Positions 15,212-56,214 of a DNA stretch of 64,000 bases are shown here, one piece after another. Source of the stretch: a virus; the IMG/VR virus record IMGVR_UViG_3300008267_000040, positions 39,629 to 103,628 of that record; one strand, 5' to 3'. The first letter of the stretch is position 1; every line of letters starts with the position of its first letter. The translations under genes were made by a program, and so were the position numbers. The notes under the pieces were generated by a model, which was not told the DNA's origin, made no database searches, and saw only the letters and a list, made by a program, of their open reading frames with translations.

Positions 15212-16777
15212 TTAGAACTCCAATACGATTTTAATATCTTCTTTTTGGCTTGCTGATCTTGGAATTGCCTTTCTGTTATCGATATAAATTATATCACCAG
15301 ATTTTTTGTTATATTCTGCCGATGATATTCCAGCAACAAAATTGCTTCCCAACTGGTATGTCCTACTATTTATTACTGTACTAATACCCGTAAAGTTTCT
15401 ATCAATTGATAATGCTGGACCAACAATATTAGGACAATTTATTGTATACGAACCACCAGCAATAGCAGATGAGGTAAATCCATAAATTCTGTATCCAACA
15501 CCAACTGTAGCAAGACCAACTGGTTGATAATATTTTAAAACACCAGTTACATTATCCCAAGAAGCAACAAATCCAATTGCTGTCATACCTGTACCAATTG
15601 TTTGCCTAATTACAGAGTCTACTGGATATGTAGTTTGAGTTGTTAATCCAGAAAGTTTTATAGAATTTAAAGCACTTACCTGCCCTAAACTCAATCTTTC
15701 TGTATCACTACCAAAAATTGTTGGATTTTTTATAATTCCGATTCTGGCAAAATCGTTTCCAAGAATAATATCTGGATTTTGTTCATCGGTTAGATATCTG
15801 GAATAAACCAACACTCGATATGCACCAAGTTCTCTGTAAATATTATATCCATGTCCTCCTTTTGGTGGAATAATAACATCAAATGTCGCAATTCTTCCAT
15901 CATTTGACAATTCTGATGGAATTCCAGGAGCACCAGGTTGGAATTTGATAATACCTTTTGTGTAACCAGATCCACCATCTGTAACAAAGACTTCAGACAC
16001 TTTTCCAAAAGAATCTACTGTTATTGTTGCCTTTCCTCCAACTCCATCACCAAGAATTGGAATATTTGTAAATGATTTTGAAATGGGTTGATAATTTATT
16101 CCTCTATCTGTGATAGTAACAATCTCAACTTTACCATTAACTGCATTATTTTTTGTTGCAATAGTCTCACCAACTTCTCCCCAACTTTCTGGGACTGGAA
16201 TGAATTCAATAGAATCAAATTTCACAATTTCAGATGGTTTAATTGTGAATAGATATTTCCAAATATACCCATCACCACTTGTTCCTGCTGGTCTTGCCTC
16301 TAAGTCAATAAATGTTGGTTGGTCAAATGATGGTCTTCCATTTGGGTTTTCTGGATCAGTTCCATTTTGAAGACAAATATAAACTCTAAAATCTTCATTA
16401 ATTACATAAAAATTTGATTCGTATAAACTTGGTTGATTCGTTACTGGAGTTTTCTTATAAATTGAATAATCATGTCTGTACATTTCATAAGTTGTTCCAG
16501 AAGTCCACTGGACTTTTCTAATCATCCTCCTTACATCTTCATTTGTAATTTTTTTCATAGCAATGATGGTTTCTTTGACCTGATTTTCTTCGTCAAATCC
16601 GTCCAATGGAGTCAATCCATCACCCCAAATAGCAGATCCACCTGCCTGTGGATTTAAACTATTTGGTTGACCAATAAAGGTATAATAATTATTTGCAGTA
16701 TTACCAACTGAAACTAGACTTTTTACAAAGGTTTCAGCATTCATCACCCTAAATTGTTCAGTTATGATAGCAGGCAT
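15212..16777 (-). CDS. gp8: Baseplate wedge subunit gp8
   Basis: MPAIITEQFRVMNAETF...YEMYRHDY...VYICLQNG...DGYIWKYLF...YIDNRKAIPRSASQKEDIKIVLEF. Confidence 0.9.
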   Translation of the reverse strand: MPAIITEQFRVMNAETFVKSLVSVGNTANNYYTFIGQPNSLNPQAGGSAIWGDGLTPLDGFDEENQVKETIIAMKKITNEDVRRMIRKVQWTSGTTYEMYRHDYSIYKKTPVTNQPSLYESNFYVINEDFRVYICLQNGTDPENPNGRPSFDQPTFIDLEARPAGTSGDGYIWKYLFTIKPSEIVKFDSIEFIPVPESWGEVGETIATKNNAVNGKVEIVTITDRGINYQPISKSFTNIPILGDGVGGKATITVDSFGKVSEVFVTDGGSGYTKGIIKFQPGAPGIPSELSNDGRIATFDVIIPPKGGHGYNIYRELGAYRVLVYSRYLTDEQNPDIILGNDFARIGIIKNPTIFGSDTERLSLGQVSALNSIKLSGLTTQTTYPVDSVIRQTIGTGMTAIGFVASWDNVTGVLKYYQPVGLATVGVGYRIYGFTSSAIAGGSYTINCPNIVGPALSIDRNFTGISTVINSRTYQLGSNFVAGISSAEYNKKSGDIIYIDNRKAIPRSASQKEDIKIVLEF

Positions 16778-16807
16778 TTTATACAACCGTTTTTTCTTTA
16801 TTTAGTT

Positions 16808-19800
16808 CTATTTTAGACCACGAGTTCTATATACGTCTGGAGCAGTTGATAATCCAATCAATCCATTATTGGTATTTACGGGGAAATTTCTTGGTTGGAA
16901 TCTTGTTCTATTTTGGAAATCATAAATCTTGCCCCAAGTATATTTTCCATAAATTCCATTTTCATTAGTGTTAGTATCTACTTGGATTGGAATGTTTCCT
17001 GGTCCAGTTGTAAAGTAGCATCTTACTGTAACTATTCCAGAAACAGCAGGTGAAACTGTGCCAACTCTATAAACACCATCAAGATACGAAGTTGCAGTTC
17101 CAACTCTTGATGCTGGATAATTATTCATTCCCCCCATTGAAGTAGTAATTCCAGTTAATGCATGACCAACTGTAGAATTGCTATTGTAAATTACAAAATA
17201 ATCATTTACTTCTAATTGACTATTTGTTACTCCAAATGTATTCAGTGAGGAATAACCAATACCCAAAGTTACATTATCATATTGCTCACTCTTCAGTACA
17301 AAATCAATATGAGTAGCACCAACACCAACATAAGTAATTACACCAAAATCACCTTTAGATTTGATTGAATATATCTTTTCACTAACTGCATCATCACCTT
17401 CAAGAAGAACTGGTGGTGGAGTTGATTGCGAATAACCAAATCCAGGATTTACAACTCGAATTGAAGACACAGCACCATTTGATACTGTGGAAACTCCTGT
17501 TGCTCTGTTGTAAATTGGTTCAGCATACATTGTGGTTCCAGAAGTTCCAACGAGTAAATATCTACCCTCTTCAGCAATAATTGGTCCAATTGGTCTTATT
17601 TCTGGAGGTAATGGAGCAGGTATAAATGCAAGATCTTTTACTACATTGTTCTGGTTTGTTAACCTTTGTGTCCAATATTGTAAATCCAAGGAGAATAGTA
17701 ATTGATTTGTGCCAGTTAAAGCAACATATACACCATACTCGTATTTTATATTAATTAGGTCATCTGATATATTTGGAATTATTCTTTCCCAACCAGTATT
17801 TCCAGTTGTAGAAACAAAAATTGTTGCATTTTGTCCAACAGCAACAAATTGAGTTCCTGTCCATATAACTTTTTCAAAATTTCTGGTTGTTGGTAAAGAA
17901 ACAATTCTGTCCCAAATATTTCCATTAGTAGAATGAATAATTGTTCCACTATCACCAACGACAACAAATCTTGCGTCATTGTTGGCAACACCATTTAAAT
18001 TAGTAAACACTGGTGGATTTTTCTTAAAGAATGCAGTTGTTCCAATTCCTACACCAGTAAATAGACCAATTCCATCACCAACTGCAACAGCAGTCCTTCT
18101 CAATGAGGAATAACTAATATCATTAAATGTATTGTAATAACTACTAAAATTGATGATAGGATCTGGAAGACCAACGACAACCTGCTCTTCAAGTAATTTT
18201 ATTTCTGTCCATGCAGATAAAGTTGTATTAATACCAACTGATGTTGCAATCTTTGCAAATTCACCAACAACATAATAACGATTAGGTTCTGCAACAGATA
18301 CGGAGTTGAAAGATATTGTCTGTCCATAACCTATGGATGATTGGGACCATTCTATTCCATTTGTAGATATTGCAACTATTCCACTTGAACCAACAGAAAC
18401 AATTGGATTTCCTATTACAACTTTATTTAAAGTATAAGAAGAAGATATTCCATTGTTTGACCCTTTCCAGTTATAAATTGGGTCTTTTCTTTGTATGAAT
18501 GCTGAAGATATTGCAACAATTGGATTTGTTAATGTATTATAACCAGTTCCTGCATACGAAATAGATAGACTCGAAATTGTTGACGCAGAAGAAACAATAG
18601 CAGTAGATATTGCTGGTTGAATATCATTTACATCTACAATAATAACATCTCTTAAGTTTTCACTCAGTAAATCAACCTCACTGAAAAGTGGGAATGCATT
18701 ATTAACGTATATCTTTTCATCTTCGGAGAAAACATTTGCAATTAACTTTGTATTTGGGGTTATTCTTGATTTTAAGTCTGGTCTGGATTTGGAATATAAG
18801 ACACCATTGATAATTCTATCTACAGTTTGCTTTGCCCATCTCAATGGCCTTTCTTTTGTTACATCGGTGTTTATGCCAATGCTATCATATGTAAATGTAT
18901 CTAAAGCATCAGAGGATACAATCTTTTTGACAATTCTTTCAAATTGTGGTCTATCTCCAGGGTCTAAAATATTTTCTCCAATTTGTATGGTATCACCTTC
19001 TTTTATTGTTTTTGGTGGGTCAATTTGTTCAACATCTAAGTCAGATCCTCTAAAGAATAGTATGGTGCATTTTGAATTTTCTTTTGGTGCTTCAGTAAAA
19101 GTAAGTCTAGATCCGTTAAATGTGTATGATTTTATTGGTTCCTGCAATACATCATTTATAAACACAAATAGATTATTTTCAATCTGAACATCTGTGCTAG
19201 GGTCAGATTTTAGACTCAATACTTCTGTTGTTCCTCCTTGAGATATGGTCAGTGTGAATTTTTTCTTTGAACCAGTAAAGTATTTTGCTATGTCATCAAA
19301 TTGTATAAATTGACCTGGATAGAAACCACTAAACTTATCTGTCAGTGTTTCCTCTACTGTAATTCTAAACTCACTAAATCCAATTCCAATTGATGGATTT
19401 GTTGTTACACCAACTACTTTTAATACATCACCTACCTTATAATATAATCCTGGTTCTTCAATATCAAATCCAATTACATTTCCTTGATTTCCTACAATAA
19501 CTGAAGCCTTTGCACCAAATCCATTTCCTGTGGACCCAGAAATATACTCTAAAGGCAAATCACTATAACTTGATGGAATTCCAATTAATACTCTTGGAAC
19601 TGGTGATGTTGTATATCCAGTTCCTGGATTGACAATGGAAATTGATGTAATAGTTCCTCCAGTTCCTATTATTGCAACTAAAGAAGCACCAGTACCGACA
19701 TTTGATAAAATTTCAATTTTTGGTGGAGTCCTATACCCACTACCGAAACCTTTTATAGTTACTGCTGATATTGTTCCTGCAGCAGAAACTGTTACTGTTG

Positions 19801-21649
19801 CACCAGCACCAACTAATGGTTGATAACCATATCCAGTAGTAATCCCAGTTCTAACAATTTTACCTGCGCCTGGTGTTCCAGTTAAGAATTTAATTCTATT
19901 TTTTGCTGGATTGTCAATAACAAAATCAGTATTTGATATCTGTGGAATATTATTAATTAGTACAATTGGATTATTATTAACATCAATTGAACTTGTTAAA
20001 ACTGTGTTGGTATTTGTATAAATTCCTACAATATCTTGATCATAATTCTGGAGGAAAAATTCTGTTGAAGAAGCACCAACAAATTTTGTCGATATGTCAT
20101 CGAAAATCACATTTTTATCATTTGGAGTTCCTGGGTCAAACTTTCTTGTGAATGCTCTTCCAGAAAAACTAGACGTTATTTTAAGTCCTTCATATCCAGA
20201 TGGTCCATATGGTGGTGTAGTGAAATGAATTTCATCTTTAGATATATTAAAATCACCTCTAAGGATAGTAACAGCAGCACCAACTGTATGATAACCAACC
20301 CTAGAACCCAAGTACCCTCTTGTTACATTGAAGGCATTTGTAGAACCTATTCCGATGGTATTAATTTTTAAATACTCAGAATCAATTTGGATTGTATCTA
20401 ATGATGTGATTGATGAGATTCCCGAAAGATAGATTATGTCTGTGGTGACACCAACTATTGAAACTAAAGATACAGATAAATCTCTCTTATATAAAGGACT
20501 TTGAATAATATTATCTACTGATATAATTGCACTAGCATTTGGATTATTAAATGTAAATGACTGATATCCTGTCCCATAAGAAATGATATCCAATTCATTT
20601 GATGTAGATAGTCCAGATACTTTATAATTATCATTGTCTATCTTAGAGACATACAATGTTGATGGTAATTTATCTGTTCCTAAAACCTTCGGAGTTAAAT
20701 ATAAATCATCAGCAGGAGTTACACCACCAACTGAAGAACCTAAAATTTTGATTTTATCTGTTAATGCATATCCAACACCACCATTTGCCACAGTGATGGA
20801 AGACACATCACCAAAAGAATTTCTAGATACATTAAATCTAGCACCAGAACCAAATCCAATTATTGTTGAACTTGGGAGATTTGAATATGAACTTCCTGCT
20901 TGACCAACAATCCTAGTGTTAGCAACAGAGGAAACAGTAAATGATAAATCATTTGTCGGACTTGTTCCATTCATAAAGGTTCCAGAAATTGAAACCGTAT
21001 CACCAACTGCATATCCTCTTCCACCTTCTCTCAAAACTAAAGATGTAGAAATAGGATATCCAGTAGATGAGTTGTAAACAATGAAGACATTGAACTTTGC
21101 TCCAGTTCCAACCCCACTTGTTGAGTATGCTGGGAATGGGTCAAAAAATCCGTAGAATCTATTTTGATTGAGGGAAAAATCTGGAGTTATTGAAGCAGAT
21201 GTTCCAACAATAGCAGTTGAGATAGCAACATTGTATCCATTCTCAAAAATTGAAGTCCCATTTCCACCTTCAACCTGCATGATGATTGAAGATTCCGTAG
21301 ATGCTACAGACAAATATGGAGCAGTATCTGGTCCTTTTCTGACTATCAATGAACTTTCAACATATGATGTAGTCGCAATTCCAACTTGTGTCCCCAAATC
21401 TTCAGTTGTTGGAAAATATCCAGATCCAGAATTTAAAATAGCAACTCTTCTAATTGAACCATCAACAATTACTGGATAAAATAAACCTTCAACAAGAGGC
21501 ACTTTTGTTCCAGATATTTCTATTTTTGGTGGGTCAGTTGATGCATAACCAGCACCACCATTTAAAACATCTATAGATGAAACACCATACTCTGAATTAA
21601 AGTTAGGTCTTAAAACAGCACCTGAACCTGGAACTTCTCTTGTTGACAT
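16808..21649 (-). CDS. Baseplate wedge initiator gp7-like protein, C-terminal part, with beta-propeller-like (BNR/Ycf48-type) repeats
   Basis: 1613 aa. Many GxGY repeats, FDDIAKYFTG modules, FVVVGDSGTIIHSTNGNIW propeller repeats. Lies directly upstream of gp8. Confidence 0.7.
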   Translation of the reverse strand: MSTREVPGSGAVLRPNFNSEYGVSSIDVLNGGAGYASTDPPKIEISGTKVPLVEGLFYPVIVDGSIRRVAILNSGSGYFPTTEDLGTQVGIATTSYVESSLIVRKGPDTAPYLSVASTESSIIMQVEGGNGTSIFENGYNVAISTAIVGTSASITPDFSLNQNRFYGFFDPFPAYSTSGVGTGAKFNVFIVYNSSTGYPISTSLVLREGGRGYAVGDTVSISGTFMNGTSPTNDLSFTVSSVANTRIVGQAGSSYSNLPSSTIIGFGSGARFNVSRNSFGDVSSITVANGGVGYALTDKIKILGSSVGGVTPADDLYLTPKVLGTDKLPSTLYVSKIDNDNYKVSGLSTSNELDIISYGTGYQSFTFNNPNASAIISVDNIIQSPLYKRDLSVSLVSIVGVTTDIIYLSGISSITSLDTIQIDSEYLKINTIGIGSTNAFNVTRGYLGSRVGYHTVGAAVTILRGDFNISKDEIHFTTPPYGPSGYEGLKITSSFSGRAFTRKFDPGTPNDKNVIFDDISTKFVGASSTEFFLQNYDQDIVGIYTNTNTVLTSSIDVNNNPIVLINNIPQISNTDFVIDNPAKNRIKFLTGTPGAGKIVRTGITTGYGYQPLVGAGATVTVSAAGTISAVTIKGFGSGYRTPPKIEILSNVGTGASLVAIIGTGGTITSISIVNPGTGYTTSPVPRVLIGIPSSYSDLPLEYISGSTGNGFGAKASVIVGNQGNVIGFDIEEPGLYYKVGDVLKVVGVTTNPSIGIGFSEFRITVEETLTDKFSGFYPGQFIQFDDIAKYFTGSKKKFTLTISQGGTTEVLSLKSDPSTDVQIENNLFVFINDVLQEPIKSYTFNGSRLTFTEAPKENSKCTILFFRGSDLDVEQIDPPKTIKEGDTIQIGENILDPGDRPQFERIVKKIVSSDALDTFTYDSIGINTDVTKERPLRWAKQTVDRIINGVLYSKSRPDLKSRITPNTKLIANVFSEDEKIYVNNAFPLFSEVDLLSENLRDVIIVDVNDIQPAISTAIVSSASTISSLSISYAGTGYNTLTNPIVAISSAFIQRKDPIYNWKGSNNGISSSYTLNKVVIGNPIVSVGSSGIVAISTNGIEWSQSSIGYGQTISFNSVSVAEPNRYYVVGEFAKIATSVGINTTLSAWTEIKLLEEQVVVGLPDPIINFSSYYNTFNDISYSSLRRTAVAVGDGIGLFTGVGIGTTAFFKKNPPVFTNLNGVANNDARFVVVGDSGTIIHSTNGNIWDRIVSLPTTRNFEKVIWTGTQFVAVGQNATIFVSTTGNTGWERIIPNISDDLINIKYEYGVYVALTGTNQLLFSLDLQYWTQRLTNQNNVVKDLAFIPAPLPPEIRPIGPIIAEEGRYLLVGTSGTTMYAEPIYNRATGVSTVSNGAVSSIRVVNPGFGYSQSTPPPVLLEGDDAVSEKIYSIKSKGDFGVITYVGVGATHIDFVLKSEQYDNVTLGIGYSSLNTFGVTNSQLEVNDYFVIYNSNSTVGHALTGITTSMGGMNNYPASRVGTATSYLDGVYRVGTVSPAVSGIVTVRCYFTTGPGNIPIQVDTNTNENGIYGKYTWGKIYDFQNRTRFQPRNFPVNTNNGLIGLSTAPDVYRTRGLK

Positions 21650-21654
21650 ATTTT

Positions 21655-21885
21655 TTACTTATTATAAACACCACGGGGGAATAATTGTCCTTTTGCTGGT
21701 CTTCTTCCTGTAAGATAACCAGGGGTAGATATGTCCTCATCTCTCAATGGAAGATTACCAATAGAAATTGTTCCATTTGTCTCTGGAATTACAAATGGAG
21801 TTGTTGCCGAATCAAATGTATATTCAACATTTGCATCTGTTCCAGAAACTTGAGGATCTAGTGAAATGAAAGTGAATTCAGGCAT
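21655..21885 (-). CDS. Small conserved hypothetical protein
   Basis: 76 aa ending GYLTGRRPAKGQLFPRGVYNK; start overlaps the stop of the upstream gene. Confidence 0.65.
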   Translation of the reverse strand: MPEFTFISLDPQVSGTDANVEYTFDSATTPFVIPETNGTISIGNLPLRDEDISTPGYLTGRRPAKGQLFPRGVYNK

Positions 21886-32200: not shown

Positions 32201-34095
32201 ATTTTTTTACTATCTTTGTTGTCACCTATTGTTGTAACATGATAAATTCCAGTTTTTATGCCAGAATCGCTTTGTGGAAAATAATAAATTTTTTCTCCAG
32301 TATAAAAATTGTGAACAATGTCAGTTTCTAGAATATCTGTCTTTCCAACACCAGAAGTTGTTGATGTTTTTACAGTTTGATTTTTTGCATAAAGTGGATA
32401 ATTAGATATGCCAGATGCTGCAACATAAAATGATTTGTATGAATCATCAATATAAGTATTTTGTACTGCAACTGGAAAAGAATTTACTGATGGTGTGTGA
32501 TTTACATCACTAGAACCAAGTAAAATTACTTCTTTTAATAATGTCTTTTTAGTTGCATCTAGATTAGATGACAATTCAATTGTATTTTCAGAAATTATAT
32601 TTACTATTTCTGCATCTATTTCTGGATCGTTAGATATATCAAGATTTACTAATTTAACTTTTTGTCCAATATAAAGTCTGACATTATCATAAAATGAAAC
32701 AGTATAGACTTTTCCACTAGTGTCCCCAGATTTAATTATGGATTTAATTTTGTGATTTGTAGATACATTATACAACCAACTATAAAATTCTGGTTTATCA
32801 CTTAGTTCTGCGCCAAATGAAGACAAAGATATCTTATCATTTACCAATAGATTAGAAGTACTTTGGTAATTTACTTCTCCTATTACATTAATTAATCTAA
32901 ATTCTATTTTTTGATTATCTTTATCGTAAGTATAAACAAAATTAGTTTCAAAAACTTCATCACTATACTCTAAACCAACAATTAACCCAGTAACTCCCAA
33001 AAACTGAGTATTTGTTTTACTTGTATATGTAAGTCTAACAGTAGTATTAGCAGTATTTTTTCCTTTTACTAGAATAGTTCCTGATTTTGGAAATCCTACT
33101 GTGGAATCAACATAAATCGTGCTTGAAAATGCATCAACTTTCTTTGTAATATTTGTTTTTTTAGTACTGACAAAATTAGAAATAAAAGAAGTACTATCTA
33201 AATAAATCTCATAAAGATTTTTTTCATCTACAGGTCTAAATTCAATTGAGTAAATTGAAGCACTTGAAGAACCAACTTCTCCATTATCTTGGAATAATGA
33301 TGCTCTATCTGGACCACTAATTAGGAGTGGATCTGAACCACTTACTTTTTCAACAAGAATATTTTTTGTTACAAAGAAATTATCATCAGATGGCCTTAAA
33401 ATATAATCTTGTGGTTTGATTACACTGATATCAGCATTAAAAAGAATTTTAAAAAGTATTTTATATGAAGTATCTGTTCCTTTTGTTGTATAGAAATCAA
33501 TAGCTCTTGATAAAATATTTTTTATCTTTACTTGAGGAATAAAATTTCTGTTCTCAAATCCTGGCAAAAATTGTGCTTTGAATTTTGTAAATAATTCTTG
33601 ATAGAATAAAAGGTTTAAATTACTAACTACACTACCACTAGCATGTTCTTCTGACTGAGTTGTAGTAAAATTAAGAGAATTTGAACTGCTTAATGTGTTT
33701 AATTGATCAATTCCAGAAAATCCACGAGAGCATCCAGTAAATGATGTGGCAGTTTTCCCAGTATATGTAATTATTTCATTATTGATTTTTAACAGACCGT
33801 ATGATTTTGGAAATCCTACAGTATGATTGACTGTAATTGTATCATCAAAAGTTAAAAGACTTTCAGTTAATTGGCATGGAACAAATAAAGTAAAGAATAA
33901 TTCGTTATTATATGTTCTTATATCTTTATATCTGTCAAGATTTGCTGCAATATCTGTTATCCCTGTTGGATATTCTTGTGAGATATAGTACTGATTTAAA
34001 AATTCTTTGAACAAAGGAGAATCTTCGTTCAAAAAAGAAGGAACTTGTGACTCAATAATATCTTGAATCCTTACTCTATCGTTAATATCTGCCAT
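26245..34095 (-). CDS. gp7: Baseplate wedge initiator gp7-like protein, N-terminal part
   Basis: 2616 aa. IIESQVPSFL...FLNQYYISQE, DFYTTKGT, HSPIIGWAYDGNPIYGPYG, DLDEHNGRFCKTPDYP, DNDYYQKFSYSIKS, LVHPAGFKEFSD. Lies directly after gp6. Confidence 0.8.
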   Translation of the reverse strand: MADINDRVRIQDIIESQVPSFLNEDSPLFKEFLNQYYISQEYPTGITDIAANLDRYKDIRTYNNELFFTLFVPCQLTESLLTFDDTITVNHTVGFPKSYGLLKINNEIITYTGKTATSFTGCSRGFSGIDQLNTLSSSNSLNFTTTQSEEHASGSVVSNLNLLFYQELFTKFKAQFLPGFENRNFIPQVKIKNILSRAIDFYTTKGTDTSYKILFKILFNADISVIKPQDYILRPSDDNFFVTKNILVEKVSGSDPLLISGPDRASLFQDNGEVGSSSASIYSIEFRPVDEKNLYEIYLDSTSFISNFVSTKKTNITKKVDAFSSTIYVDSTVGFPKSGTILVKGKNTANTTVRLTYTSKTNTQFLGVTGLIVGLEYSDEVFETNFVYTYDKDNQKIEFRLINVIGEVNYQSTSNLLVNDKISLSSFGAELSDKPEFYSWLYNVSTNHKIKSIIKSGDTSGKVYTVSFYDNVRLYIGQKVKLVNLDISNDPEIDAEIVNIISENTIELSSNLDATKKTLLKEVILLGSSDVNHTPSVNSFPVAVQNTYIDDSYKSFYVAASGISNYPLYAKNQTVKTSTTSGVGKTDILETDIVHNFYTGEKIYYFPQSDSGIKTGIYHVTTIGDNKDSKKIKLSLSKSDLYSSVYIKFDRNIVSDSFVKLDYENKVVENQKLFKKFNYVKGDSTLKQVADRTTNNRQVGILINGVEIYSPTLFDENIYYGKLDGITVTNPGKGYDIINPPEIEITDVSGRNAKGYANIVGGLSEVKIVTPGVGYQIKPKITLVGGNGSGAVVEPNLVKSKINAGFKGDGSGVNPTTNTIIFSQNHNFDDGEEISYNANFNAEIFPLKTNSNYYAGVISPTQIRLYERLEDAYRKTNEVNLVGISSGFHSFITLKSKNTITEIRVKNSGSGYSNRIIKIPSILAFDEKANGVNTFDHYVFAKNHGLKDKDILRYSTTGTSISGLSTSSEYVVTVVDNNKFKLSTIGVGTQFYDVNYENKRYIRFNSLGTGTHTFSYPPIRLVVETLSGIGATSIIEPQFEPIVLGSIDSIFIEDSGVGYGVSNIVNFHRRPDIRVKPIISEALLKPIVLNGTIVDIQFLSYGSGYDKGIDIIVNGKGSFADIRPVIENGRLVAVNIANGGIGYDKDTTSITIKRRGSDAKFIGDVFEWKINQVEKNKKLLEIQDQAFIVPSKNKDLGLQVVNFYPPRLLRKSIKDHLDSSNRETPNNIHSPIIGWAYDGNPIYGPYGQVGSEIRKIRSSYTKRVEPDKNIRPNLPDGFFTQDFYYDRAIGDLDEHNGRFCKTPDYPDGIYAYFATIDNSAISIPEFPYMIGNYFRDYVIPENYASIFNQDIDLESLNLIRNIGPYYINSGNSNYDLISNTDKKYKQEFTVTKTLSSSIDGVQIYSDGSGYKVGDNVVFDNRNTSGSGASAAVSRIKGKPIKSIVVGIKTSLDVSFYTYGNNVVGVTQEPHQLITGDKITISAISNSNYSYFEGIKDIFVSQKTVGLSTNIPILVVSGETTSIIVNDVSGFEVDDFVSIGSEILKITNISVEKSELTVNRLQNAGVHTVGIDSVKLLPRKFTFSVADQKYPIKKNDVVYFSPKTFVGFGSTGENYTLSDQTNLNVPDRSIYIKNHNFYTGQLVKYNVGFAGTGMIVSNTITQADAFTLQDNQNIYIVNRGQDYIGLSTVGYTTSTGIGSSLSSLYFFDDISVTGLAHSLTTTYEKVIGKVENFSLNVETTETHGLGNSDEITFNLLPRLVDTFKLRYDTNIRKITTEVKSFNTSVAISTETSEIYLPGNNYVTGDKIVYYNDGNTTIGGLQTNETYYIIKQKPDYIKLSNYYDSSKSGVSISLTSQGSGVQSIALVNPPLASTKGNIIEFDLSDSSLSGMDLKLYKDGNILIEVESYKYTRNAIDAGVSGAKLRIDTTDKSITNTLFYNLIPLSPSVLEKYQISIDKEVIGYNKISLNPSIYNQSYSVVSTGSTSFKFILNQKPEYFSYNANSGITTIFYDTDSKNTSGPISNIKLNFGGKGYKKVPRISSITSVSGKDAILKAFSNSIGKIDYIERIKDGFDYPTDPTLKPVLSVPTVCQIKNISRVDYIGITTGGKGYNTAPVLKVVGNDNIKLKANIQGGTVTSVDILENVTNMSAPLSVIPTRNSNGYDIDDIVYNPSTNEVTLELVNSDNQLYPLIANQYGNQETVFPFKVGDKIFVENCRITDGNQKNNYNSANHSYKFFTITGISTTNFTITYSMNGISNNLGEYTTDNNYGYVINENVMAKFEMKLIDDLGYYSGENVVGYDSNGIAVFSAVVMESGWDNDINQLRLIDSKGELEVGNRLLGTRSLLNGIVENVNQFNLISSLNVTRDKINDFTDKIGYLNDFQQRISDNDYYQKFSYSIKSQIPYTDWKEPIRSLVHPAGFKEFSDLDIIGKASNNMKVGVGDSSLNVLINVDSVESMYNRYNFSMVTEDELLPDGSIERVFFPTGVSLKSYILSKTNKVVPIDDISGQFTGFTTTTGGQIVGLTTFKLKNRGTPLFYREFQGNDSSIIDLSNNKFKLRNNNFQSGQKLFYSVVKADGTANVGVNTIFDAGFSYPGISSYFDSPIVSFDSSTIKMSSN

Positions 34096-38007: not shown

Positions 38008-38760
38008 TCAGATGATTCGAGTCTTCTCGTGACCAACACGAATCAGAGGATTACACCAAATCTCAAATCCTGCTTCCTTCGCATCAAGACAGAAGGAAAC
38101 ATCCTCTCCACACATATCTTGAACTTCTCCAGATTCAAACTGTTGCATCTTAGGTGCAAACCAAGGATACTCAAGAGATTCAAAGACACCTTTCTTAATC
38201 AACACCCAACCAAATCCAGTGTAATCAACTGTAAATGGTTTACGACGATTCTGCATCGTCTCTCCAGTTTCATGATTCATGACTCCACCATTGGTACGGA
38301 AATCTTCTTCTTCCAACCAATGTGCAACAGACGTGGTGTGTCCATCTTCAGTCATATACCAACCAGCAGCAATATCTTTATCCATTGCTACAAGACGATA
38401 GAACTTCTCAGTGTCAAACACAATGTCGTTATCAATCCAGAGTTGATAATCATATTCAAGTTTACCATCCCAAGGTTGCTGCCTAGGTCCTCTGAGAACA
38501 TTTGCTCCAAGTACTTTGCATCGTGCAAAGTTTACCATTGAACTATAGTCCTGTGAAATCTGAATACTCGCACCTGCTTGTACCAAATCAAAACACAATT
38601 GAACAAATGCCTTCAGAAAAATATATGAACAACCTCTACCTGGTAGACAAAAGACAATGGATTTTCCTTTTACCATTTCTTTTGCTTCTTCTAAATTAAA
38701 TTCATCAACAACTTTCTTAGTCGTCGGTGCGCTTGCTTTAATCGTAAATCCTTTTGCCAT
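38008..38760 (-). CDS. Glycosyltransferase-like protein (GT-A fold)
   Basis: 250 aa. VNFARCKV, LWIDNDIVF (DxD), TGFGWVLIKKGVFE, GEDVSFC, VGHEK. Confidence 0.75.
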   Translation of the reverse strand: MAKGFTIKASAPTTKKVVDEFNLEEAKEMVKGKSIVFCLPGRGCSYIFLKAFVQLCFDLVQAGASIQISQDYSSMVNFARCKVLGANVLRGPRQQPWDGKLEYDYQLWIDNDIVFDTEKFYRLVAMDKDIAAGWYMTEDGHTTSVAHWLEEEDFRTNGGVMNHETGETMQNRRKPFTVDYTGFGWVLIKKGVFESLEYPWFAPKMQQFESGEVQDMCGEDVSFCLDAKEAGFEIWCNPLIRVGHEKTRII

Positions 38761-38783
38761 AAAAAAATAATTTCGACGTTTAC

Positions 38784-38812
38784 ATTATACCACTACAAAT
38801 CAATCATTGCAA
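38784..38812 (-). promoter_or_regulatory. Sigma70-type promoter TTGCAA-N17-TATAAT (extended TG)
   Basis: Minus strand TTGCAATGATTGATTTGTAGTGGTATAAT upstream of the 38760 start. Confidence 0.7.
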
Positions 38813-38971
38813 TGGGTCTTCCCTATTATTTAGAATTACTTTGATATCCTCATTATTTCCACCAGAAGTCCATACAAGTCCTCTGACTTGATTCAAAGTC
38901 ACCTCTAAATCTTCTGGATTTACTTTTTCTACAATCGTAACTCCATTTACTTCAATATTATACGTAGTCAT
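38804..38971 (-). CDS. Small hypothetical protein (55 aa)
   Basis: MTTYNIEVNGVTIVEKVNPEDLEVTL... manual translation. Confidence 0.55.
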   Translation of the reverse strand: MTTYNIEVNGVTIVEKVNPEDLEVTLNQVRGLVWTSGGNNEDIKVILNNREDPLQ

Positions 38972-39110
38972 CAGTTTCTTCTACTTTGAAGAGCAACTCT
39001 TCAAGTTCTTCCCTGAGAATTTCATTTGAATTTGCTGTCTTGTCCGTTTCGAGTCGGAATTGTATGCATTCAATCAACAACTCTCTCTCATAGTCTGTAA
39101 CTTCTAACAT
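38958..39110 (-). CDS. Small acidic hypothetical protein (50 aa)
   Basis: MLEVTDYERELLIECIQFRLETD... GAGG RBS. Confidence 0.6.
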   Translation of the reverse strand: MLEVTDYERELLIECIQFRLETDKTANSNEILREELEELLFKVEETDDYV

Positions 39111-39409
39111 ATCCTCTCATGTTATTCTTTTTCCATTTATATATCAACCTTTTGAGAATTTTTGCCACCCCGAAAATTTTTTCTAAGATTTTTGATTACA
39201 ATTCTCATAAGTTCTCCGAGGGTCACTCCGAGGTATTCTAACTCTTCCCTATGGGTGGTTCTCGTACTTAGAGAATTTTTTTTTCTCAAAGACAAACTCA
39301 ATGGCAAAATCATACTTTTATAGATTAGGGTAGTTATGCGTTTTTCTTTTTGGGGCATCGGTTCTTAATACTTTACACCATCAATCGCAACATACTGTCC
39401 ATAAGAATC

Positions 39410-39650
39410 AAACAACACTGTTTAATTAGAATAGACGAAGCACCACGAATAAGAACAAAACAGTGCTGTTTAATTATAATAAAATAGTATTACCCAGGTA
39501 TAGGATAAACGAAACCTCCGATTATTCTGTAAGAACAGTGCTGTTTAATTAGAATTAATAACTATACCCCAGGTATCATAATACTCGAAGACCACCGAGT
39601 TGTCAATGCATAAGGACTAAACATAAAGGACGAAACAGTGCTGTTTAATT
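39410..39650. repeat. Four copies of palindromic element (A)AACAGTGCTGTTT-AATT
   Basis: 39458-39475, 39534-39550, 39633-39650, and variant AAACAACACTGTTTAATT at 39410-39427. Confidence 0.9.
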
Positions 39651-39822
39651 CTTATAATTAAACTGTATGGGAGGTATATAATACCTGTGGAAAACTCTTA
39701 TACTTTTTCCACAACCCTGTGGAAAACTATGTGGAAACTGTGGAAAACTTTATATCGAACCCCTGTGTAATACTTATAAACATCTAGGAGATATAACGAA
39801 TTCCCTCTCCTCCCGCCCTATA

Positions 39823-39880
39823 AATCTAGCACGAACTGCATAAGACTCATAAGACGAATGGACAGTGCTCAAAGTGTCCT
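39823..39880 (-). promoter_or_regulatory. Early-type promoter (palindrome + TGnTAGATT) firing leftward across DnaA boxes
   Basis: TGGACAGTGCTCAAAGTGTCC(T) at 39859-39880, 30 bp from the -10 at 39823-28. Confidence 0.55.
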
Positions 39881-40035
39881 TGGACGAATAAATCTCATAA
39901 GTCTTCCGAGTCTCATGGACGAACAAATAAAAATCCTCCGAGTCTCATAAGACGTATGAGTTCTCAGAGTCTTATAAGGTATTATAATACACGAACCCCT
40001 TGACATCACTGTAAAGTTGTGCTGGGAATTATCGT

Positions 40036-40093
40036 GTGCCAGTTCTCAGAGTGGATTTTTGCCCTTGACTTTTCTAGGGTTTTATGATACAAT
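40036..40093 (+). promoter_or_regulatory. Plus-strand promoter TTGACT-N17-TACAAT with upstream palindrome
   Basis: -35 at 40065-70, -10 at 40088-93, motif GTGCCAGTTCTCAGAGTGGATT at 40036-57 (30-bp gap). No ORF downstream. Confidence 0.7.
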
Positions 40094-40424
40094 GCACGCT
40101 TAGACGGCAATAAGATCACATAATAACTCACATTTATCAGAGTATTAAATCACATAATAACTCAGATTAAATCAGAGAAGAAAGGGTATTTATATAAGTT
40201 TTCCACACCCTTGTGGAAAAAGAACAACACACAAACATATGTTTTTTAATACATTTTTTTTAATTATCTTTTATTACACAATTACATAAAAATACATTAT
40301 TTAACTTTATTCATCATGTTTTCTACTGTATAACTCATACCAATCAACATATAAGACATACACATTGATAAGGTAATAGAGTTAAAAATGTTTGGTAGAA
40401 TAGGTATTGATTGCTTCATAGGTA

Positions 40425-40721
40425 TTAGTAAGAAGCAGGTTCAAGAGTAATGTTTTCTTTTCTTGAGAGTTTATCTACTTGATAAGAGATTTCATCATTC
40501 ATACACTTATACACAGTCTCATAGATTACATCATAACAATCTAGATTAGAAAGAACTTGTTCTGCTAGTTCATCATTATATGGATAAACAATTTGATTTG
40601 TAACTGGATCATAATGTTCTAATTCTTTTACATCATCCTTTGTATAAAGAAGATAAAAGACTTGTTCATTCGGATCACGTTTTTCTAATGAGTGAATAAC
40701 GTCTTTAACTGTTTGTTTCAT
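40425..40721 (-). CDS. Hypothetical early protein
   Basis: 98-aa ORF, overlapping its neighbour in an operon. Confidence 0.6.
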   Translation of the reverse strand: MKQTVKDVIHSLEKRDPNEQVFYLLYTKDDVKELEHYDPVTNQIVYPYNDELAEQVLSNLDCYDVIYETVYKCMNDEISYQVDKLSRKENITLEPASY

Positions 40722-40912
40722 TTGATTAGGGCAATCAGTTCTTTTTGAATGTTTTGAATTTCTACTTCATCATCTACATCTTGCAAATCAACAGGTGCAA
40801 ATTCAGAAAGATTTACAGTGTTATCATTGTAGATAGGAGCATAATACAACTCTTTCGAATCTTCGTCAAGAGTGTAAAGTGCTGCGTGGTCTTGCTTTTG
40901 AAGAATAATCAT
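40718..40912 (-). CDS. Hypothetical early protein
   Basis: 64 aa. ELYYAPIYNDNTVNL motif, acidic. Confidence 0.6.
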   Translation of the reverse strand: MIILQKQDHAALYTLDEDSKELYYAPIYNDNTVNLSEFAPVDLQDVDDEVEIQNIQKELIALIK

Positions 40913-40994
40913 TTGAGGGAATTAAGAATAATGAGAAGTTCGTTTCCTGTTTGTGCTTTGGACAGGAGATTGATCTTTTCTTTGCGTTTCATAT

Positions 40995-42093
40995 CAGTTA
41001 CTCATTACCTTATTGAACAGTGAATCATAATCATCTTGATTGATGTGGTCAGGAATACCTACATCATAGAAGAATTGAATCATAGATTGAAGAACTTCTA
41101 ATTCTTCAGGAGTGAATCGGAAAATCATTTCTTCCATTTGATTTCTTGTGCTTTGAGGTACTTGTATTCTCGAATAAAAACTTTAATTGCCCAGATTGCA
41201 GTTGCGGTTTTACCAATCAACAGAATCCAACCTAATGTCATCATTGCTCTTTTTGCTCTACAAGTTTAGCAGGTGAACCACAAGACCGATAGAAATCAAC
41301 CATTGCTTGTGCTTCTCTTACATTCGGGAATGATTGAAACCTCCACTCACAATCGTTGTAAGGCACTTGATAAGTAATCTTCACTTGATTATACATTTCA
41401 ATCATTCCTCAATGAAACAAATTTGACTTTGTTCTGCTGCTAACTCTTGCTCCTCATTCACAGTTGCAAATGCAGGAGAAGTTAAAAGAAAGAAAAGAAG
41501 AATATATTTCATCAATCAACCATTGATGAGTTGTTGGACTTGATTGAAATCCTTACATTGTGCTGCTTTAATTGCATTTGTGATGCTATAAGTCACAAAA
41601 CCACAACGGTGTTCTGCATTACACACAGCATAACCAATTTGTTTGGTCTGAATGTCAAAAACAGTTTTAATCAGCATTGCTTGTTTGTGTTTATGTGGGA
41701 CAGATAGAATTAAGAATCAGTCTGCGTATTGTGCATAAACAATCGCAATCTCGGCATTTTCTTCATCATTGAAAGAAATGCCACACATATCAAGCATCCA
41801 ATCATAAACCATTTCCCAATCTGCTTCCATCTCAGAAATGAAAGAAGGCAGAGATTGAATTGCTTCGGAAAAAGTCATCATTGATTGTTTTGTTTGTTTG
41901 TTGAAAAGAGAATTAAGATTCAGATGCGGGCAAGAGCATCTTTCTTTTGCTTCGGATTGGAAACTTGCTTACACCAAGAAGACTTGCGATAAGAACCAAC
42001 TTGAGAAGGAAGTTTTTGCTTACCCTGAACTTCATTCACAAGAGTAATGAAGTTCATGAAGAATTGCTTTTCCATCCGTTGAGCAGCAGTCAT
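40995..42093 (-). other. Run of ~7 tandem small (<60 aa) early genes below the ORF-track cut-off
   Basis: Examples: 41920-42093 MTAAQRMEKQFF..., ~41717-41878 MTFSEAIQSLPSF..., ~41517-41678 MLIKTVFDIQ..., ~41242-41406 MIEMYNQVKITYQVPYNDCEWRFQSF..., ~40995-41137 MEEMIFRFTPEELE... Confidence 0.6.
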
Positions 42094-56041: not shown

Positions 56042-56056
56042 AATGAGTAGGAATAA

Positions 56057-56130
56057 CGTTTCAGGAGGGACTCGAACCCCCGACCAACTGCTTAGAAGGC
56101 AGATGCTCTATCCAACTGAGCTACTGAAAC
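56057..56130 (-). tRNA. tRNA-Arg(TCT)
   Basis: GTTTCAG acceptor stem, TAGCTCAGTTGGATAGAGCA D-arm, CTGC-CTTCTAA-GCAG anticodon arm, GGTTCGAGTCC T-arm. CCA not encoded. Confidence 0.95.
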
Positions 56131-56214
56131 AAATGCCCTCCTGTTTGTGCATTATTAAGAGGCATGGAGGGGGTGGGACTTATTCAAAGTTTGGACCTTT
56201 GATGCCCGTAAGAA

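Follow-up and report, generated by a model that had tools for sequence, protein, structure and literature searches.

The 64,000-nucleotide (nt) window analysed here, positions 39,629 to 103,628 of IMG/VR record IMGVR_UViG_3300008267_000040, belongs to a freshwater T4-like cyanomyovirus. A non-coding gap in this window, at 39359-40296 (all positions are those of the window), contains arrays of DnaA boxes together with a promoter, a leader and an AT-rich block, and to judge from its sequence this module is the best candidate for the unmapped replication start of the virus. We tentatively favor the interpretation that promoter, leader and AT-rich block form a cassette, a candidate origin resembling T4 oriF/oriG, at which host DnaA would dock to help or time activation. 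The module is not a copy of the host oriC.

The window contains seven perfect copies of the 9-mer TTTTCCACA/TGTGGAAAA, compared to 1.77 expected and a maximum of 5 in 100 dinucleotide-preserving shuffles (0/100 reached 7). Six of these are in the gap, at 39686(-), 39705(+), 39718(-), 39739(-), 40199(+), and 40212(-). The contig that holds the window (103,628 nt, about half a genome) has eight perfect boxes, six of them inside 535 nt; under uniform placement, the chance of finding six of eight in the gap is, by our own arithmetic, ~1e-10. Boxes with one mismatch are not enriched (34 found in the whole window, 38.8 expected), and the signal is therefore the local cluster of perfect sites. The boxes form two groups:

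39686 to 39747, unstranded: DnaA-box cluster A, four perfect TTTTCCACA and one near box, GTTTCCACA, at 39730(-).

40199 to 40220, unstranded: DnaA-box pair B, an inverted TTTTCCACA-CCCT-TGTGGAAAA with a 4-nt spacer, adjoining the AT-rich block.

An earlier sequence-only reading of this DNA had reported six perfect boxes and one box with a single mismatch within 535 base pairs (bp) of non-coding DNA, an inverted pair at 40199-40220, and a single further perfect copy in the window at 32273; the count against shuffles recovered all of these. The five boxes it had placed in 39686-39747 are present as five sites, only four of which are perfect. Within cluster A, 39705-39726 is itself an inverted pair with the 4-nt spacer ACCC. 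An array homologous to cluster A is present in relatives L128, L088, L151, L085, and L106. Pair B has homologs in S-BM3, L088, L151, and L060, and is missing from L136, L154, L159, and L182, which keep the remainder of the cassette.

The 9-mer TTTTCCACA is the published cyanobacterial DnaA-box consensus, as the sequence-only reading had claimed for oriC of the Synechococcus type, and binding in vitro has been described for Cyanothece and Anabaena (PMC4674748). In the regions upstream of dnaN in 18 small Cyanobacteriia genomes, we found four to nine perfect boxes in eight genomes and nine TTATCCACA boxes in four. Six perfect boxes directly precede dnaN in a 2.7-megabase (Mb) cyanobacterium (G055), and another genome (G002) has seven at dnaN, including a TTTTCCACA-ACCC-TGTGGAAAA pair equal to that of 39705-39726. 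The sequence flanking the boxes is also similar: the +1 and +2 positions are G in 70% and 76% of the phage boxes (G background 18%), versus 80% and 55% in cyanobacteria. One-mismatch variants within the phage arrays depart from the box at positions 1-3 and 7; changes at 6, 8, and 9 are rare and changes at 4 absent, whereas background one-mismatch words vary mostly at positions 6 and 8. The positions that vary in the arrays agree with the relaxed DnaA-box consensus reported by Schaper and Messer. In S-BM3, a single perfect box has TTATCCACA, TTTTCAACA, and CATTCCACA beside it, the first two being substitutes for the perfect sequence. Taken together, host DnaA probably binds the phage boxes. No DnaA domain IV (PF08299) was found in five complete box-bearing phage genomes, and no PF00308 (DnaA) in this contig. 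In a scan of bacterial genomes for the inverted pair, the matches listed included many phyla and one cyanobacterium; the scan shows the pair to be widespread in bacteria and gives no sign that cyanobacteria are its particular home.

We also considered the 9-mer as a general early-promoter element; its low copy number, 8 per 104 kilobases (kb), argues against this. The Syn9 transcriptome study (Doron et al. 2016) is said to have defined the early and middle promoters of cyanophages.

The cassette beside the boxes consists of three parts:

40065 to 40104, plus strand: sigma-70-type promoter with extended -10 (TTGACT-17-TG.TACAAT) and conserved start region GCACGCTTAGA; 10/12 in the promoter scan, with TG.

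40105 to 40198, plus strand: variable leader with direct repeats private to the lineage, ATCACATAATAACTCA at 40110-40134 and 40144-40168.

40221 to 40332, unstranded: A/C-only stretch AGAACAACACACAAAC, followed by an AT-rich block with the word TTTTTAATACATTT (40243-40256); conserved, a candidate DNA unwinding element.

The promoter opposes the flanking genes and is aimed at pair B and the AT-rich block. Its -35 element is of the canonical TTGACT/TTGACA type and not a MotA box at -30. The 40-nt promoter motif (TTGACw, 17 nt, TG.TAnnAT, then GCnnGCTTAGA) was found in 44 places, all of them related loci. Boxes occur within -900 to +500 nt of the motif in 42/44, and the AT word TTTTTAATACATTT follows 99-428 nt downstream in 32/44. 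The start of the leader and its A/C- and AT-rich end are conserved among relatives, whereas the middle differs and contains other private repeats; these private direct repeats are present in two to three copies, with spacings of 34 and 22 nt. The RNA fold of the leader is better than that of shuffles (z = -2.86, for a single sequence), driven by the box hairpin and by A/U runs. An AT-rich tract had been noted at about 40230-40320, and the calculation bears this out: 40233-40332 is 85% A+T, and by nearest-neighbor energy only one other 100-bp window of the contig is less stable (the tract ranks fourth at 60 bp). The AT-rich block is located 140-240 nt downstream of the plus strand promoter (40065-40093).

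Conservation of the boxes in relatives, a check that the sequence-only reading had proposed, was assessed in viral contigs picked by gp25 homology alone (56-98% identity), of which 23 had at least 4 kb on the relevant side. Boxes are present at the syntenic place in 20 of these 23, with three to 12 perfect copies within 700 nt, 2.4-4.4 kb upstream of gp25. Over 10 kb in the opposite direction from gp25, no boxes were found, and a reversed control word occurs zero to one times. Complete genomes carry a single tight cluster each: three boxes in 34 nt in S-PM2, three in 33 nt in Syn1, an inverted pair in P-TIM68, and seven boxes in 460 nt in DSL-LC03, the last with the same two-cluster layout as the window. 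More than 118 IMG/VR contigs matched when scanned for the inverted pair, most of them with additional boxes nearby.

At T4 oriF and oriG, replication is primed by a promoter transcript that persists as an R-loop in an unwinding element downstream of the promoter, and T4 oriE has iterons (PMC3016281). A promoter followed by a non-coding leader and an unwinding element is the oriF/oriG layout, and we therefore read the cassette as its putative cyanomyovirus counterpart. The host-type sigma-70 promoter would fire against the neighboring genes, through the non-coding leader, and into the easily melted AT-rich block, where its transcript would form an R-loop in the unwinding element and prime DNA synthesis, as at oriF and oriG. 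The DnaA-box arrays would be lineage-specific additions, with cluster A upstream of the promoter and pair B between the leader and the AT-rich block. Host DnaA docked on these boxes could help or time the opening or transcription of the cassette, and the first, origin-dependent round of phage replication would thereby be coupled to the host initiator. DnaA binding, promoter firing, formation of an R-loop or origin, and the effect on timing are all steps that we infer.

Several observations weigh against this interpretation. DnaA-trios are defined as at least three repeats with the consensus 3'-GAT-5' within 16 bp of a box, on a strand set by the orientation of that box (PMC8287927). We searched for strict TAC/TAG runs of at least three; the looser (.A.)x3 rule was left aside because chance easily satisfies it in DNA of 65% A+T. 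Trio runs were found in 13/16 cyanobacterial dnaN-upstream regions, placed between the last box and the AT-rich region, versus 0/25 phage modules, and the strand segment that trios beside pair B would need (GTTTGTGTGTTGTTCT) contains no adenine. The DnaA of S. elongatus requires both trios and boxes for unwinding in vitro (PMC8287927); with no trios present, DnaA-driven melting of the oriC type is therefore not encoded in the module. T4-type phages have their own helicase loader and need no DnaA, which goes unmentioned in PMC3016281. No box cluster was found in S-SRM01, P-SSM2, S-SSM7, S-CAM7, Bellamy, or S-SKS1, and two of these, S-SSM7 and Bellamy, keep the promoter/AT-rich cassette at the syntenic place. 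The boxes are thus dispensable, an optional addition to a conserved cassette, and both how many there are and where they lie relative to the promoter differ widely (-28 to -580, +64 to +250). GC and AT skew along the 103.6-kb contig keep a constant negative slope that does not turn at the gap, and there is no strand switch at the box site; because all large genes are on one strand, skew is uninformative about an origin here. Four metatranscriptome runs contain the region, with an 8.7-kb contig bridging 39357-42000 and shorter contigs covering 39352-39792 and 39829-40271; these contigs carry no information on strand or transcript ends, may reflect DNA carry-over, and indicate presence in RNA libraries only. 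Missing trios and boxes that relatives can do without both weaken the strict version, in which DnaA melts the phage origin.

Several features separate the module from the host origin. Like cyanobacterial oriC (PMC4674748, PMC8287927), it has the TTTTCCACA 9-mer with a G/GG flank, clusters of boxes that point in both directions, the TTTTCCACA-ACCC-TGTGGAAAA pair, and an AT-rich block. Unlike the module, oriC has trios and dnaN; the module has a promoter of its own, the box nearest its AT-rich block is oriented opposite to the oriC arrangement, and phage relatives can lose the boxes yet retain the rest. The sequence-only reading had called the region a host-like oriC, and this label is not supported: trios are absent from 25 modules, the box on the AT side is reversed, box-less relatives keep the sigma-70 promoter, and picocyanobacteria of the thrC-dnaN type carry nothing better than one-off boxes at their origin. 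The module does not lie next to dnaN or dnaA, a DnaA family match being absent from the contig; its neighbors are gp25, speD, and small open reading frames (ORFs). Three genomes with a thrC-dnaN arrangement (L344/G200, L345/G144, and L358/G112), from synteny and size probably relatives of Prochlorococcus or marine Synechococcus, have no perfect TTTTCCACA at the origin, only sequences that are one-off, such as TGTGGAAAT and AGTGGAAAA. The DnaA sites of a phage infecting such a host can thus be better than those at the host origin. Perfect boxes in two Prochlorococcus-like genomes (G166 and G184) are no more frequent than background and do not cluster at dnaN.

A separate observation concerns a 1.8-Mb, 25% GC member of the Cyanobacteriota (L342; G005:C4:37600-38900), which has about eight TTTTCTACA repeats upstream of dnaN. 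This genome is probably non-photosynthetic, and TTTTCTACA looks like a lineage-specific variant of the DnaA box.

The module could instead be an element of DnaA-controlled transcription and not an origin, with DnaA switching or blocking the antisense promoter and/or a second promoter that reads leftward:

39578 to 39606, minus strand: sigma-70-like promoter (TTGACA-17-TATTAT), 11/12 in the promoter scan, reading towards ORF 39137-39358.

This leftward promoter (39606-39578), whose TTGACAAC is conserved in L128, L088, and L151, has cluster A 80-170 nt upstream of it. DnaA bound to the boxes could insulate the late (baseplate) unit from the early unit, and the timing of phage genes would follow the DnaA state of the host. 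Boxes in relatives range from overlap with the -35 element (L019 and L110, -27 to -73) to beyond the start, a placement that suits repression or a roadblock as well as it suits an origin, and the missing trios fit binding to double-stranded DNA only. DnaA is a known transcription factor that, in the lambda work as cited in PMC8477408, regulates pR-driven origin activation. However, the number of boxes (one to 12) and their spacing are too variable for a fixed operator geometry, and a purely transcriptional role leaves unexplained why a promoter is aimed at a conserved AT-rich block through a leader that is neither coding nor conserved. We consider this alternative unlikely.

A further proposal is that the phage uses host DnaA as a sensor. 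The DnaA of S. elongatus occupies oriC only during photosynthesis (PMC6478999); a box-flanked cassette would therefore fire its origin or priming transcript only in lit, energized, replication-competent cells. If true, this would be a direct molecular link between light and genome replication in T4-like cyanophages, and lineages without boxes would be without the gate. We regard the sensor role as speculative and rather improbable.

The boxes might also act as a sponge for DnaA, like datA of E. coli, in which the 6-12 perfect boxes per phage genome soak up host DnaA and, as phage copies rise, stop chromosome initiation or alter the expression of DnaA-regulated host genes (DnaA titration is reviewed in PMC5835720). 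All phage boxes counted are perfect matches to the consensus, versus 1-29 perfect boxes in whole cyanobacterial genomes, and in the thrC-dnaN picocyanobacteria, with their one-off origin boxes only, 100 phage copies would outnumber host sites many-fold. The absence of trios would likewise fit DnaA binding without unwinding. Titration, however, needs neither a fixed locus nor linkage to a promoter and an AT-rich block, many successful relatives have no boxes, and the benefit would be doubtful if host DNA is degraded, as it may be by T4-like phages. Because titration follows from any binding of DnaA, it may be a side effect; as the function of the module we think it improbable.

Still less probable, in our assessment, is that the 9-mers are bound by some other protein, either phage-encoded or another host factor, and resemble DnaA boxes through coincidence or mimicry. 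The adjacent small ORFs (38804-39358 and 40297-40912) match no known family, S-SRM01 and Sf-FS3 are annotated with a gene for a small DNA-binding protein or regulator in the neighborhood, and the private repeats suggest that a lineage-specific protein acts here. Yet core, flanks, and tolerated positions all match those of DnaA boxes, the identical inverted pair with spacer ACCC is found in the cyanobacterial origin of G002, and the pair is present in many bacterial phyla and in an unrelated siphovirus lineage related to S-CBS4; moreover, S-SRM01 has the DNA-binding gene yet no boxes. A role of the inverted pairs as hairpins in RNA, whether as terminators or as processing sites, and not as protein sites on DNA is hardly credible: the two pairs can form 9-bp stems, and the pair hairpin accounts for part of the leader fold, but there is no terminator-like site and no U-run after the stems, most boxes are single or in direct tandem and unable to pair, S-BM3 has a change in one arm without compensation, and pair B is missing in many relatives that keep the cassette.

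Two further groups of repeats are located in the gap:

39401 to 39680, unstranded: four copies of a 33-43-nt unit, with palindrome AACAGTGCTGTT, then TTAATT..TAAT and CCCAGGTAT (families D1 and D2).

39840 to 39975, unstranded: short direct repeats of the GAGTCTCATAAGAC family, between cluster A and the promoter, from the repeat search.

The palindrome units lie between ORF 39137-39358 and cluster A, and the leftward promoter is directed through two of them; they are possibly a structured leader or small RNAs. Related units are present in L088, L128, L151, and L136, and repeats resembling the GAGTCTCATAAGAC family ('ctcataagac') in L088, L151, and DSL-LC03. RNA-library contigs end at 39562-39564, with increased depth over 39352-39562 in two runs, a weak hint for the leftward promoter. 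Co-occurring related phages that have just the boxes in common account for some of the contig ends and loose ends at the box cluster.

The closest named relatives of the virus are Kyanoviridae, such as S-SRM01, S-SSM7, and the DSL-LC phages, and the public runs containing this stretch are freshwater and lake metagenomes from 13 studies. To the left of the gap are the baseplate gene gp25, speD (S-adenosylmethionine decarboxylase), and a glycosyltransferase-like gene; to the right is a series of small ORFs without known family. The flanking genes are all on the minus strand. Searches of ten flanking ORFs against Pfam and PHROGs matched only speD, the glycosyltransferase-like family, and families of unknown function, with no Rep or DNA-binding family among them. 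The gap itself (about 940 nt) is non-coding: it has no ORF of at least 60 amino acids, and the three mechanical ORFs of 41-50 amino acids are on the minus strand. The site had been described as the junction of the late and early regions. The gene content on the two sides agrees with this, but one strand is used throughout and cumulative GC skew does not turn. An Rfam search of 38700-41000 at E<=1 gave no match, a terminator scan found no terminator-like site, and a transfer RNA (tRNA) scan found none in the gap; the sole tRNA of the window is a tRNA-Arg with anticodon TCT at 56056-56131 on the minus strand.

Some observations in other phages are recorded here in their own right. Two related IMG/VR contigs (L162 and L156) have lost most boxes, and about 300 nt of extra sequence separates those that remain from the promoter. 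Insertions can split the module. The S-PM2 record AJ630128.1 has tRNA-Asn and tRNA-Leu annotated over the box cluster (19177-19333), and further tRNAs inside coding genes. ARAGORN found no tRNA anywhere in S-PM2 16731-21763, and the tRNA features of AJ630128.1 appear to be misplaced. Seven contigs of uncultured siphoviruses from IMG/VR (L006, L038, L063, L077, L098, L113, and L118; GC about 0.5) have one TTTTCCACA-N4-TGTGGAAAA pair each, between endonuclease VII-like and GP88-like genes and near the genes of a ribonucleotide reductase that shares 75% identity with its counterpart in cyanosiphovirus S-CBS4. No such box cluster was found in S-CBS4 itself, Syn5, or S-CBP3. The cluster A query also matched non-coding DNA of gut Microviridae (gokushoviruses), Lactococcus phages, and a Microbacterium phage, and DnaA-box-like arrays may be common in other phage groups.

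Few viruses of lakes and oceans are as abundant as the T4-like cyanophages. In full-text literature searches, we found no paper on DnaA boxes in cyanophages and none mapping a replication origin of T4-like cyanophages; for other lytic phages, in-silico DnaA-box predictions made with Ori-Finder are available, and a DnaA DNA-binding domain is encoded in some pelagiphages. The module provides a precise, conserved, single-locus origin candidate with a concrete host partner, DnaA, and this makes the origin question directly testable. The box-bearing and box-less relatives that share the cassette are a natural experiment. A T4-type phage that enlists the host initiator would, if true, be a departure, in that T4 replication has been described without DnaA, and the DnaA link could explain why cyanophage replication depends on light and on the state of the host.

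Among known systems, T4 oriF (uvsY) and oriG (gene 34) resemble the cassette in having a promoter with a downstream unwinding element and a non-coding transcript (Kreuzer and Brister 2010, PMC3016281). T4 oriE is similar in its short direct repeats ('iterons'), located at the same position in close relatives, and T4 origins are, like the boxes, individually dispensable and variable between relatives (PMC3016281). The oriF/oriG promoter is a MotA-dependent middle promoter, whereas the cyanophage has a plain sigma-70 promoter with extended -10 and DnaA-box arrays; the R-loop and the replication start are described for T4 and are predictions for the cyanophage cassette. Host DnaA controls the transcriptional activation of ori-lambda (Wegrzyn et al. 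1995, as cited in PMC8477408); the interpretation we favor resembles lambda, in which the origin is activated through nearby transcription and host DnaA acts on transcription and not on melting. Lambda differs in having its own initiator O with iterons and in using host DnaB, whereas in the cyanophage no initiator gene was identified, the replisome is of T4 type, and the arrays are far denser. The iteron replicons P1, F, pSC101, and RK2 combine DnaA boxes, short direct repeats, and an AT-rich block. Unlike these replicons, the module belongs to a lytic T4-like phage, has no recognizable adjacent Rep gene, and its repeats are few (two to three) and irregularly spaced. The E. coli datA locus is a non-origin cluster of high-affinity DnaA boxes that needs IHF and promotes hydrolysis of DnaA-ATP. 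The phage module is similar in being a cluster of high-affinity boxes able to hold many DnaA molecules; in contrast to datA, this cluster is tied to a promoter and an AT-rich block, an origin-like cassette.

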